Positions 1 through 3,000 of a DNA stretch of 26,902 bases are shown here, one piece after another. The DNA is from a virus (taxonomy: Duplodnaviria; Heunggongvirae; Uroviricota; Caudoviricetes), in IMG/VR virus record IMGVR_UViG_2541047123_000048; one strand, written 5' to 3'. The position numbers were made by a program. The first letter of the stretch is position 1. Every line of letters begins with the position of its first letter.

Positions 1-3000
1 ATGGACAACGACAAAATTGATCAACACAGCGACGAAATTGAAGTTGAGAGCGAAGAAAAAGAGCGTGGCAAAAAAATAGAAATAGATGAAGATCGACTCC
101 CCTCCCGGGCGATGGCAATTCATGAGCATATCCGCCAGGATGGTGAAAAAGAGCTGGAACGCGACGCAATGGCACTACTGTGGTCAGCCATTGCGGCGGG
201 TCTGTCGATGGGCGCTTCATTACTGGCAAAAGGGATATTTCATGTCGAACTGGAAGGTGTGCCGGGCAGCTTCTTGCTGGAGAATCTCGGTTATACCTTT
301 GGTTTTATTATCGTCATTATGGCCCGCCAGCAATTATTTACCGAAAACACCGTGACTGCGGTACTACCCGTCATGCAAAAACCGACAATGAGCAACGTTG
401 GCTTACTTATGCGGTTATGGGGCGTCGTGCTGCTGGGTAATATTCTCGGGACAGGTATTGCGGCGTGGGCATTTGAATATATGCCAATCTTCAATGAAGA
501 AACTCGCGATGCATTTGTCAAAATCGGCATGGATGTGATGAAGAACACCCCCAGCGAGATGTTTGCCAACGCGATCATTTCCGGCTGGCTGATCGCCACT
601 ATGGTATGGATGTTTCCTGCAGCGGGTGCGGCAAAGATTGTGGTGATTATATTGATGACCTGGCTTATTGCCCTGGGTGACACCACTCACATCGTTGTCG
701 GTTCTGTTGAAATCCTCTATCTGGTGTTTAACGGTACGCTGCACTGGAGCGATTTCATCTGGCCCTTCGCACTACCTACTTTAGCGGGGAACATCTGCGG
801 CGGCACCTTTATCTTCGCGTTAATGAGTCATGCACAGATCCGTAACGACATGAGCAACAAGCGCAAAGCAGAAGCACGCCAAAAAGCAGAACGTGCGGAA
901 AACATTAAGAAAAATGATAAAAACCCGGCATAAATGGCGAGGGTTTAAGCAATCGAGCGGCAGCGTACTTACCCCGCAGTCCATTAGCGGGTATACTCAT
1001 GCCGCATTGTCCTCTTAGTTAAATGGATATAATGAATATAAGTATTAAGTCATTGATTTAAATACAGAAAGTGGCGAAATAATCGTCATATCAGTACCCA
1101 TTTATGTACACACCCCGTTAAGCATGCCCCGCACTTCCGTACGGGGCATGTTCTTTACTCCACTCCCACTTTTTTGTTGTACTCGCGGTTAAACCGATCC
1201 ACGGCAATTTTCATATCCCGCTCAACCGATTTCACCATCGCCGACTGTTGCGCCAGACTGAGAGTACTGTCGGCGTAAATGGCATCACGCTGTTTACGCA
1301 AATCCTTCAGTCTCTTCCGGGTATCCTGCATAAGCCCGTTCATCGACAATTTTCCGTTGTTCTCGTCAATGAACGCCGTTCTTTCTGCACCGGTCAGACT
1401 CTTCAGCTCTGCGTGATACTGCGCAACCTCTGTCATCCGGTCGTACATCTTCTGCTGGTCAGCATACGGCATCACCTCACCTGAAATTTTCCCCAGGAAG
1501 GGCACCTGCTGCTCCGGTATATCAATACCGTTCAGCGATTTCACCGCCGCATCCGTGGTTTTGGAAATGAAGCGCCCTGTCCCTCCGGAGATATAGTCAA
1601 TCCAGTATTTCAGTGATTCCGGCGTGACATCCACCGCACCGGAACGGTACTGGCTGCCACCAGAGAACGCATTCAGCCAGGATGCAAACGCCTTGTACGC
1701 TTCTGGCGTTGAACGTCTTCCCAGCTGGCTGTCAGGTTTTGGTGTACCAAACGGCATGTTCTCCTGGTAAATCTGCGCCCCCATGAAGTTTTCGTTCATG
1801 GCAAGATTCGCAAACGGACGCAGAATTGTCGGTGCTGCATTTTTCAGCAATGCCCCGGACAGTGTTTCCGACGTTTCACTGCCCACAGGACTGAATGCCC
1901 CAAGCACACCACCAACAACATTACCGGCAGCACGTGAAGCGGTCAGGTCGCCCGCTGCCACCCCTTCGGCTGTGTGACCAAGCAGGAAGAAAACGTTGTA
2001 CCCGTAAGGCAGAGGAATACTCCAGTACTCTCCGGCCTTGCCCCCGAACACCGATTTCATAATGACGAGGTTACGCTCTTTCACATGAGACGGCACCTTG
2101 TCATACCAGTTAACCCCGTCATCATCCTCCCCCGCAACACTGCGGTTAAGCGAGCCAAGCAGATAACCCGCTCCCACAGCTGCAAGCGCGATTTTCTGCG
2201 GTACATTGAGATTCTTCCAGCGAAGGCGCTCCAGTAACGGCCCGTCGCCATTAAGATGTCCGAGCGTTCTCACCAGGTTTGCGGTCCCCTGAATGCTGGC
2301 GTTGGCGAACATGTACAGCGAGTTCATCAGCGCTCCCTGCTCACCACGACGGTTAAAGTTCACCGTCATGTTTTTGGCAAGAGACGCCGCCTGCTGGCGT
2401 GACAAACCGGCATCACGGGCGTGTTTATAGGCAGAAAGACGCAGAGCGTTTTCAACCGCCCCGTTGGCATCCTCGACAAGGTTAAGGAACGAATTCCATG
2501 CACCGATACTCTGGCCTTTCCATCCTCCCTTCGCCAGCGATACAAGGCGATCCATTTCCTTCTGCTGGCCTTCAAGGTCACCCATGTTAAACCAGCCGGT
2601 TTTACCTCCGTCCTCAACAAACTCTTTCCACACCTTCTGCCACTGTGCACCTTTTCCCGTGAGGGTTTTACCACGCAGACTGGCGTATACGGCTGACATG
2701 GCAGAACGGCTGTCTTTCACCACAGCCAGGGCGGATAAGTTATCCAGCCCTTTCAGTTTACCGTCGCTCCTTCCCTGCTCCGCCTTCAGGTTCATCACCG
2801 CCGTCTGCACGTCACGGATGAAGTTACTGACCAGGAATTCCGGGTTATACGACGTGTTCACCGTTGCCAGGAAGCGGTTAACTTTCCCCAGCGTACGAAC
2901 AAAGGCATTGCTGGTTTCCGGTCCCATATTCTTCATCGCACGCATCAGGCGCGGATCATGGAGTTTGATGTAGTACGTTTTGCCGTTCTTTTTGGTGGTG

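Follow-up and report, generated by a model that had tools for sequence, protein, structure and literature searches.

The 5' end of argW as the likely attachment site of a 933W-like Stx2a prophage with a Φ24B-type integrase

Positions 1008-1154 of the DNA stretch analysed here (26,902 nt, IMG/VR record IMGVR_UViG_2541047123_000048; hereafter the window) are in all likelihood the yfdC-side att junction of a 933W-like short-tailed Stx2a prophage, inserted by a Φ24B-type integrase at nt 1-24 of the tRNA-Arg gene argW. This 5'-end junction is real and unusually placed, yet it is already described. GenBank record HQ424691 (phage VT2phi_272) annotates 25-bp attL and attR sites across the tRNA 5' end, LC616031 annotates a 24-bp "duplication due to insertion", and typing work has targeted the junction by PCR under the name "argW left junction" (PMC8309913). 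The conserved hexamers in the spacer between the integrase gene and the rebuilt tRNA gene, considered below, may be the sole addition to the known argW att biology.

Table 1. Features around the yfdC-side junction (window coordinates).
Feature	Coordinates	Strand	Details
yfdC, formate/nitrite transporter family, host gene upstream of argW	1..933	+	310-aa ORF
Native yfdC-argW spacer, bacterial B arm of attB/attL	934..1008	+	75 nt
attL common core: T1008 and argW nt 1-24	1008..1032	+	comparison of attB, attP, attL and attR
Phage P' arm of attP, intergenic portion	1033..1154	+	AT-rich; joined to the int-side arm in free phages, 100%
Two candidate arm-type integrase sites, AGTACCCA (1093-1100) and TGTACACA (1105-1112)	1093..1112	+	pattern search
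Strong hairpin followed by TTCTTT	1121..1152	+	fold -21.1 kcal/mol, z = -5.5; inverted repeat I2
Giant polyvalent late-region gene, last of the prophage	1155..9557	-	2800 aa (ORF tool); RefSeq start shorter

The argW fragment and its host flank

The letters at positions 1009-1032, GTCCTCTTAGTTAAATGGATATAA, are identical to nt 1-24 of argW, the reference being the 75-nt tRNA-Arg(CCT) gene called by ARAGORN at the far end of the TW14359 prophage. The fragment spans the 5' acceptor strand, the D stem, the D loop and three of the four 3' D-stem bases. Even when three mismatches are tolerated, the window contains a single copy; 0 of 100 shuffles contained it. Neither ARAGORN nor Rfam called a tRNA in the window, which is expected and uninformative, because the argW piece is only 24 nt long.

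In prophage-free O157 strains, the uninterrupted yfdC-argW locus matches the spacer and the fragment at 100%, and therefore the distance between the fragment and yfdC is the native one. The first-pass annotation, which had recognised here the first 24 nt of argW at the expected distance from yfdC, is borne out by this alignment: the fragment is derived from argW. The yfdC gene is annotated at this locus in TW14359 and in 30 genomes among the matches listed. Direct reading of the spacer reveals a TATACT hexamer 11 nt ahead of the tRNA +1 position, so that the spacer presumably holds the native argW promoter region.

The argW sequence is left at position 1033, where tgaatataag... stands in place of cgagcccc... 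From this point on the DNA belongs to the phage; its GC content is 0.32 (1033-1120), compared with 0.52 for the window as a whole. The switch to AT-rich phage DNA had been noted correctly, as had the late rather than the integrase end of the prophage abutting the junction: the neighbouring gene codes for a polyvalent late-region protein with the Pfam domains LPD38, LPD5, LPD1 and MuF_C, annotated as "LPD38 domain-containing protein".

Direct repeat and reciprocal att sites

A 25-nt direct repeat, consisting of a T and argW nt 1-24, is common to both prophage junctions (the distal one taken from TW14359), i.e., it is one nucleotide longer than the 24-nt repeat that the first-pass annotation proposed to look for. 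To reconstruct attP, the int-side arm of TW14359 was combined with the P' side from the window (1033-1432). Phages phi345, phi346, phi349 and P27 contain this attP unbroken, with all 825 nt identical (100%); Stx2 phage 86 and Lyz12581Vzw match it at 94-95%. The reconstructed attB is likewise unbroken and 100% identical over 825 nt in prophage-free O157 strains, e.g., PV15-279 and 86-24; at least 80% of it is covered in 1716 genomes. The junction itself occurs in identical form in 209 of the 5426 complete E. coli genomes.

The first-pass annotation had offered a truncated or rearranged tRNA as an alternative. Under such a scenario argW would have lost nt 25-75 after conventional integration, e.g., by a deletion or an IS629/IS1203 event, and the junction would be no att site. 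Rearrangement does occur in this prophage, which has IS1203 copies and a 7.8-kb inversion, and its far end lies outside the window. However, the break coincides exactly with the edge of the 24/25-nt repeat that recurs at the other prophage end, no IS end is located near 1033, and free phages contain the exact reciprocal attP, just as bacterial genomes contain the uninterrupted attB at 100%. Together with the recurrence of the junction in 209 complete genomes and its annotation in GenBank as an att site, this makes truncation highly improbable. A chimeric join of the yfdC locus with a prophage contig during assembly is improbable in the extreme. Prophage-rich O157 genomes are prone to misassembly in general, and nothing specific points to it here, but the 209 genomes with a 100% identical junction were finished independently and the junction has been obtained by PCR.

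Distal end and identity of the prophage

Window positions 1-18095 are collinear with TW14359 and 99.994% identical to it. In TW14359 the prophage contains stx2a, and at its other end, about 62 kb off, the order is int (minus strand), a 195-bp spacer, a complete tRNA-Arg(CCU) gene argW, and then intS. The full-length 75-nt argW at this distal junction, the int-argW arrangement there, the repeat and the 100% matches to attP and attB uphold the principal suggestion of the first-pass annotation, namely a core in the 5' half of the gene with an intact tRNA re-formed at the far end. Since the distal junction, int and stx2a lie beyond the 26.9-kb window, for the strain of the window they are deduced from near-identical genomes.

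In all likelihood the prophage is the Stx2a phage that occupies argW in O157:H7 strains of the clade-8 type (933W-like, Sepvirinae). The argW Stx2a prophages of O157:H7 clade 8 (TW14359, EC4115, VT2phi_272, Stx2a_F765 and others) have the same junction between yfdC and the giant gene. The window differs from them by a second IS1203 copy and an IS-bounded 7.8-kb inversion (18096-25863). In none of the 5426 complete genomes was this inversion found in one piece, nor did any of them match 80% or more of window 14000-26902 at a single location; the left IS boundary (window 17500-18500) is covered as joined pieces in six genomes.

Relation to the Φ24B integrase system

In TW14359 the integrase, whose gene lies 195 bp from the rebuilt argW, is a protein of 389 aa with Arm-DNA-bind_3 and Phage_integrase domains; direct comparison showed it to be 97% identical to Φ24B Int. 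Window positions 1009-1032 correspond to 24 nt within the attP of Φ24B (vB_EcoP_24B; HM208303 nt 17-40, reverse complement). The 24-nt core is thus identical in the two systems, and the flanking attP DNA is 98% identical. They differ at position -1, where Φ24B has C while the attP of the argW Stx2a phage has T; the latter is shared with attB and extends the repeat to 25 nt. The integration modules are also alike: int is placed opposite to the lambda arrangement, has its own promoter, and xis lies downstream.

Φ24B Int was reported to use a 24-bp crossover site, an attP of 350-427 bp and an attB of 62-93 bp, and to be independent of IHF (PMC7581858). The arms of the minimal attP are roughly equal, and attB requires a flank of 18-49 bp, named the B arm, to one side of the core (PMC7581858); the same paper is silent on which side of the gene the B arm occupies. 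Integration by Int alone and excision in the presence of Xis have been demonstrated (PMC3064807), and Int-dependent recombination with the cloned primary attB has been published (PMC3064807, PMC7581858). There is no mention of tRNA, argW, intS or yfdC in either of these two papers. Judging by sequence identity, the primary attB of Φ24B would be the 5' part of argW (nt 1-24). As attP equals attB throughout the 24-nt core, the core carries no sequence marker for the crossover point, which we would place within the D loop, at nt 14-21.

The prophage could also have entered through RecA, by homologous recombination with a tRNA-like stretch of the phage, or have used a secondary Φ24B site. According to a review, Stx phages, including Φ24B, can form multiple prophages at varied sites and use secondary ones when the preferred site is occupied (PMC8065619). 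Nevertheless, we consider both routes very unlikely. Efficient RecA recombination needs more than the 24-25 shared nucleotides, the core matches attP exactly, as would be expected of a primary site, and has the length of the Φ24B 24-bp crossover site, and the association of int with tRNA-Arg(CCT) recurs in 20 further loci.

The phage arm next to the junction

The functional P' arm is probably some 200 bp long and reaches into the giant gene at its 3' end. Within it, the two candidate arm-type sites correspond in motif and orientation to three TGTAC(A/T/G)CA sites beside int, which are invariant in the P arm across 19 species. In the attP of Hafnia phage yong2, each of the two is conserved at the distance from the core that it has here. 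WGTACNCA is not enriched window-wide (5 found against 4.7 expected), so the weight given to the candidate sites comes only from their clustering and their conservation in yong2. On these grounds, integrase may be expected to bind at 1093-1112.

The hairpin immediately follows the giant gene's stop codon. It was missed by a simple terminator scan, which gave no statistical enrichment, and is not conserved in yong2. Its folding nevertheless makes it a likely terminator, at which transcription would end, whether driven by the native argW promoter (in the lysogen) or by the element-borne one (in attP).

A putative argW promoter carried by the element

In 20 loci of other Enterobacterales that have a relative at 57-91% identity (at least 67% in 19 of the loci), a tRNA-Arg(CCT) gene is divergent from int and separated from it by 171-204 bp. 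Together with TW14359, this gives 21 int-tRNA-Arg(CCU) spacers, and the integrase gene is divergent from the tRNA gene in 21 out of 21. All 21 spacers contain TTGnnn-18 nt-TAnnnT located 39 nt (38 in one of them) ahead of the tRNA +1 position. In TW14359 the corresponding sequence is TTGATT-18 nt-TATTAT, 39 nt ahead of +1 of the rebuilt argW and within the 195 bp of phage DNA. The spacer is variable otherwise: in an alignment of 19 sequences just 8 of its 124 positions are invariant, and six of these eight make up TTG and TA...T. Phage vB_EcoS-733R5 was considered as a distant attP and excluded as a prophage cut-out, since it contains the full tRNA gene and host genes. A promoter scan also called the TTG-TA site, as one of three matches (1.5 +/- 1.4 in shuffles); as the scan is not statistically enriched, we rely on the cross-species conservation. 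The mapped int promoter is located elsewhere, on the other strand (PMC3064807).

This conservation suggests that the element supplies a promoter for the rebuilt argW, and we think it rather probable that such a promoter is functional. The rigid 39-nt spacing could equally mark a protein-binding element of attP rather than a promoter. TTGAT is the complement of a part of the IHF consensus, but Φ24B Int has no need of IHF. A broader form of the promoter reading, in which the Φ24B-type Int clade across Enterobacterales brings along a sigma-70 promoter with a leader of about 32 nt and the level of argW in the lysogen is physiologically altered by the prophage, appears doubtful.

If the element does carry an argW promoter, every integration would exchange nt 1-24 of the sole AGG-decoding tRNA gene, along with its native promoter, for the copies brought by the element. 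The stranded native promoter would then make a short orphan transcript comprising the tRNA 5' fragment and the P' arm and ending at the 1121-1152 hairpin. Neither argW expression set by an element nor such an orphan transcript was found in the papers that we examined. Promoter supply by the element would be a simple and testable consequence of 5'-end integration.

Proposed integration mechanism and its significance

We propose that a Φ24B-type tyrosine integrase recombines the 24-bp stretch of attP with the identical nt 1-24 of argW. Since the phage copy of these 24 nt adjoins int, the host 5' fragment would become stranded, together with the native argW promoter, against the late end of the phage. 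A functional argW would be rebuilt about 62 kb off from phage nt 1-24 (or the part of them left of the crossover) and host nt 25-75. It would be located behind 195 bp of phage DNA, probably with a replacement sigma-70 promoter.

The argW gene thus offers two non-overlapping att sites: nt 1-24, used by the Φ24B-type Int, and the last 16 nt, used by the IntS-type Int. As integration at nt 1-24 would leave the 3' end of the gene untouched, a second, IntS-type element with its 16-nt 3' core could occupy the same gene simultaneously. Consequently, one O157 strain can carry a Stx2a phage and an intS-led element flanking an intact tRNA gene. Presence of the Stx2a phage in argW is a marker of clade 8, the more virulent lineage, and argW is a routine locus for Stx2a typing.

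Comparison with other integration systems

In classical tRNA integration, it is the 3' part of the tRNA gene that is present on attP, and a 3' fragment is displaced to the downstream side of the element. The argW Stx2a prophage departs from this pattern, as displaced nt 1-24 are found upstream of the element and the window contains no 3' core. It conforms to the classical arrangement in having the integrase gene beside the regenerated tRNA gene, divergently and at the short distances given above for TW14359 and the 20 other loci.

The nearest classical counterpart is IntS of KplE1/CPS-53 (and IntC of O157), a 3'-end argW integrase that targets the same 75-nt gene. Like the Int of the argW Stx2a phage, IntS belongs to the tyrosine integrases, has an Arm-DNA-bind_3 domain and is encoded beside the intact tRNA gene. 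Its core is the 16-nt sequence CTGCAGGGGACACCAT at the 3' end of argW (PMC2951348); the window lacks this sequence. The IntS-type element lies downstream of the tRNA gene, which keeps its host promoter, whereas the argW Stx2a element lies upstream and replaces the promoter together with nt 1-24. Analogy, and no more than that, can be drawn with dusA-specific integrases, which also integrate at the 5' end of their target, there a protein-coding gene, so that the element must restore this end (PMC4482086).

The classical tRNA sublocations of integration are the anticodon loop, the T loop and the 3' end (Williams 2002, as summarised in bioRxiv 10.1101/2020.11.02.365908). The same preprint describes Klebsiella islands and prophages at the 5' end of a tRNA-Arg gene, the tDNA arg2A, whose integrases form clade I.d, and names this site the "D-loop sublocation". 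No Klebsiella locus was among the 33 loci recovered in our search. [quoted passage not shown] The argW prophage has the repeat span and the upstream position described for this 5'-end sublocation.

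Junction at argW and its genomic setting

The host gene yfdC is followed in the window by a spacer of 75 nt and then by GTCCTCTTAGTTAAATGGATATAA, which equals nt 1-24 of argW, the 75-nt tRNA-Arg(CCT) gene. This fragment spans the 5' acceptor strand, nt 8-9, the D stem, the D loop and three quarters of the 3' D-stem bases. It is present as a single copy in the window even at three mismatches, and no match was found in shuffled sequence. From 1033 the argW sequence is lost in AT-rich DNA (GC 0.32 vs 0.52 for the whole window) which, according to folding, ends at a strong hairpin followed by the stop codon of a minus-strand gene. 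That gene, the last of the prophage, is a late gene for a 2800-aa product with the polyvalent protein domains LPD5 (aa 1058-1207), LPD1 (1368-1447), MuF_C (1757-1846) and LPD38 (2483-2688). tRNA and RNA-family scans detected no tRNA genes in the window. The first-pass annotation had described this junction as a 24-nt fragment, a switch to AT-rich DNA and an adjoining late end, and was accurate throughout.

Features of the junction, the late region and the inverted block
Feature	Position (nt)	Strand	Basis
yfdC	1-933	+	ORF list, TW14359 annotation
Bacterial arm with native argW promoter region	934-1008		att anatomy
Core	1008-1032		att anatomy
argW nt 1-24	1009-1032		comparison with tRNA-Arg(CCT) gene
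P' arm	1033 onward		att anatomy
P'-arm motif copy AGTACCCA	1093-1100	orientation as int-side copies	pattern search
P'-arm motif copy TGTACACA	1105-1112	orientation as int-side copies	pattern search
Hairpin	1121-1152		folding
Late gene (2800 aa)	1155-9557	-	ORF and domain search
Hok/Gef-family toxin gene	~12836-12976	-	TW14359 annotation by collinearity, coordinates by offset
Ail/Lom outer-membrane protein gene	13207-13941	-	collinear TW14359 annotation
Inverted block (7.8 kb)	18096-25863		comparison with TW14359
IS629/IS1203 copy	~18100-19400	-
ALIL frameshift pseudoknot in IS copy	18954-19070	-
IS629/IS1203 copy	~25864-26902	+
ALIL frameshift pseudoknot in IS copy	26196-26313	+

Over window 850-1400 the sequence matches E. 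coli O157:H7 genomes (e.g., TW14359, EC4115 and TR01) at 100% identity, and of 5426 complete E. coli genomes 209 span the junction. Up to position 18095 the window is collinear with TW14359 (99.994%), where the matching DNA forms the late end of a short-tailed, 933W-like prophage that has stx2a, Q, phage tRNA and lysis genes and an early region resembling that of lambda. At the distal end of that prophage, xis is accompanied by a gene for a 389-aa tyrosine integrase on the minus strand, and beyond a spacer of 195 bp come a complete tRNA-Arg(CCT) gene and intS. The intS gene is part of the adjoining IntS-type element, which goes by the name Sp16 in strain Sakai. The distal junction, int and stx2a all lie beyond the 26.9-kb window, and we infer the far-end state in the window's own strain from near-identical genomes. 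Judging by collinearity with TW14359, the late region also contains the Hok/Gef-family toxin gene and the Ail/Lom gene.

Further on, a block containing IS1203, an adjacent partial gene and the genes for the major capsid protein and tail fibre has the reverse orientation compared with TW14359. Two IS629/IS1203 copies in opposite orientations flank it, while TW14359 has a single IS at the corresponding place. None of the 5426 complete E. coli genomes contained 80% or more of window 14000-26902 at a single location.

Reciprocal attachment sites

The two prophage ends share a 25-nt direct repeat, TGTCCTCTTAGTTAAATGGATATAA, consisting of a T and argW nt 1-24, and no identity extends beyond it on either side. 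The predicted attP, in which the int-side flank meets the phage flank of the window, was found unbroken at 100% over 825 nt in the free phages vB_EcoP_phi345, phi346, phi349 and vB_EcoS_P27, and at 94-95% in Stx2 phage 86 and Lyz12581Vzw. The predicted attB, the window's bacterial flank joined to the remaining part of argW, is unbroken at 100% in O157 strains without the prophage, such as PV15-279 and 86-24, and at least 80% of it is covered in 1716 genomes. Since both parental sites exist intact, the window junction is, judging by these comparisons, one product of a reciprocal site-specific exchange. The first-pass annotation had, as the first of two options, placed the core in the 5' half of argW, with the intact tRNA gene re-formed distally, and had proposed comparisons with the other prophage end and the uninterrupted yfdC-argW locus; the repeat, the complete argW in TW14359 and the prophage-free strains bear this reading out. 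Its alternative, a truncated or rearranged tRNA gene, is contradicted by the reciprocity of attP and attB, which likewise excludes an assembly artefact.

The core of yong2, a Hafnia phage with an Int at 87% identity, differs from that of E. coli at nt 24, whereas the Φ24B (an Stx phage) core differs at -1. These points bound the region of identity and suggest that exchange may take place inside nt 1-23. By analogy with the sites of other integrases in anticodon loops and T loops, the D loop, with the D-stem inverted repeat on either side, is the probable place of crossover.

Three copies of TGTAC(A/T/G)CA adjoin int and are invariant in an alignment of 19 species. Both P'-arm copies are kept at equal core distance in the yong2 attP. 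Over the whole window the arm-type motif is not enriched. We consider these five copies candidate arm-type Int sites. The int-side repeats (L002, the TW14359 int-argW spacer, 42712-42760; alignment A1 columns 15-75), followed by GGCAAGTGAAC, are located within ~70 bp of the int start codon and overlap the region of the mapped Φ24B int transcription start, ~29 nt before the ATG (PMC3064807). This overlap suggests possible autoregulation of int through Int binding, a mode of control described for the KplE1 IntS.

Probable promoter of the rebuilt argW

Integration at the 5' end cuts the host promoter off the gene. Transcription of the rebuilt argW must come from phage DNA. A TTGnnn-18 nt-TAnnnT pair directed toward the tRNA gene is present in all 21 int-tRNA-Arg(CCT) spacers, 39 nt before the tRNA +1 (38 in one spacer). 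The spacers come from TW14359 and 20 loci of other Enterobacterales, including Erwinia, Enterobacter, Pantoea, Brenneria, Xenorhabdus, Providencia, Tatumella, Salmonella, Morganella, Proteus and Rouxiella. In a 19-sequence alignment 8 of 124 otherwise free-to-vary spacer positions are invariant, and six of these eight fall in the hexamers: TTG in the -35, and T, A and the last T in the -10. The element thus seems rather likely to supply the promoter of the rebuilt tRNA gene, with a leader of ~32 nt for removal by RNase P. Alternatively, the conserved hexamer positions may form a site in attP to which a protein binds, kept at constant spacing from the core. The hexamers were rejected as the int promoter, as the mapped one is on the opposite strand, ~29 nt from the start codon of int.

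In rebuilt tRNA-Arg(CCT) genes beside the integrase (loci L010, L022 and L030) the acceptor stem, with its 5' half from the element and its 3' half from the host, stays paired because both sides have changed together: Brenneria has A7-T66, Limnobaculum G7-C66 and Proteus T3-A70. In some of the others, U-G wobbles occur at pair 4-69 or 5-68. The compensatory changes are consistent with selection for a functional hybrid tRNA.

Transcription from the stranded native promoter would pass through the 24-nt fragment and the P' arm up to the hairpin, which is followed by a TTCTTT tail and is not conserved in yong2. A conserved element-borne promoter for the rebuilt argW, a modest and testable proposal, is the sole point possibly absent from the literature consulted.

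Comparison with known systems

In O157:H7, argW is a standard site of Stx2a phage integration, one that is characteristic for clade 8, and PCR assays are aimed at exactly this left junction (PMC8309913, PMC4645166). The annotation of phage VT2phi_272 (HQ424691) includes 25-bp attL and attR, one overlapping a tRNA-Arg 5' end, and LC616031 has a 24-bp "duplication due to insertion" at the int end, a feature also listed at the matches in the other LC6160xx records. In a Klebsiella survey, islands were inserted at the 5' end of a tRNA-Arg gene with a repeat spanning the 5' acceptor half, D stem and D loop, named a novel D-loop sublocation by its authors; some strains had one element per tDNA end (bioRxiv 10.1101/2020.11.02.365908). 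The Islander method accommodates 5' fragments upstream of tDNA (PMC4383910). Given the GenBank annotation, the typing use and the Klebsiella survey, our finding is a correct reading of an already described arrangement.

The TW14359 integrase, with arm-DNA-binding and tyrosine-recombinase catalytic domains, is 97% identical to Φ24B Int. Published experiments on Φ24B Int report a central crossover site of 24 bp and independence of IHF; the minimal attP measures 350-427 bp, its two arms being about equally long, and the minimal attB 62-93 bp (49 + 24 + 20 bp active, 18 + 24 + 20 bp inactive) (PMC7581858). Φ24B Int alone integrates, excision requires a separate Xis, and int has its own promoter mapped by 5'-RACE (PMC3064807). 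The Φ24B attP has the same 24 nt, but C instead of T at -1, hence "24 bp" there and 25 nt here. Both papers are silent on tRNA, argW, intS and yfdC; the match of the Φ24B core to argW nt 1-24 is a link made here by sequence comparison. The Φ24B attB is unusually long and asymmetric, 49 bp being required on the arm called B (PMC7581858). This arm might be the native argW promoter/leader side, though the paper names no gene side for it.

No tRNA gene was found within 3 kb of integrase relatives at 52-63% identity (L023-L029, L032, L034, L038 and phage AP012539, Stx2a_WGPS6), one of which is from an Stx2c phage integrating at sbcB (PMC4645166). Use of the argW 5' end is therefore a trait of the closer clade (~67% identity or more), and the family has changed targets, between a protein gene and the 5' end of argW.

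The 16-nt core of KplE1/IntS, CTGCAGGGGACACCAT, lies at the argW 3' end (PMC2951348) and is absent from the window. It is left untouched by the Stx2a phage, hence the order int (Stx2a phage)-argW-intS in TW14359. While 3'-end integrases keep the host promoter in place, the argW 5'-end integrase separates it from the gene.
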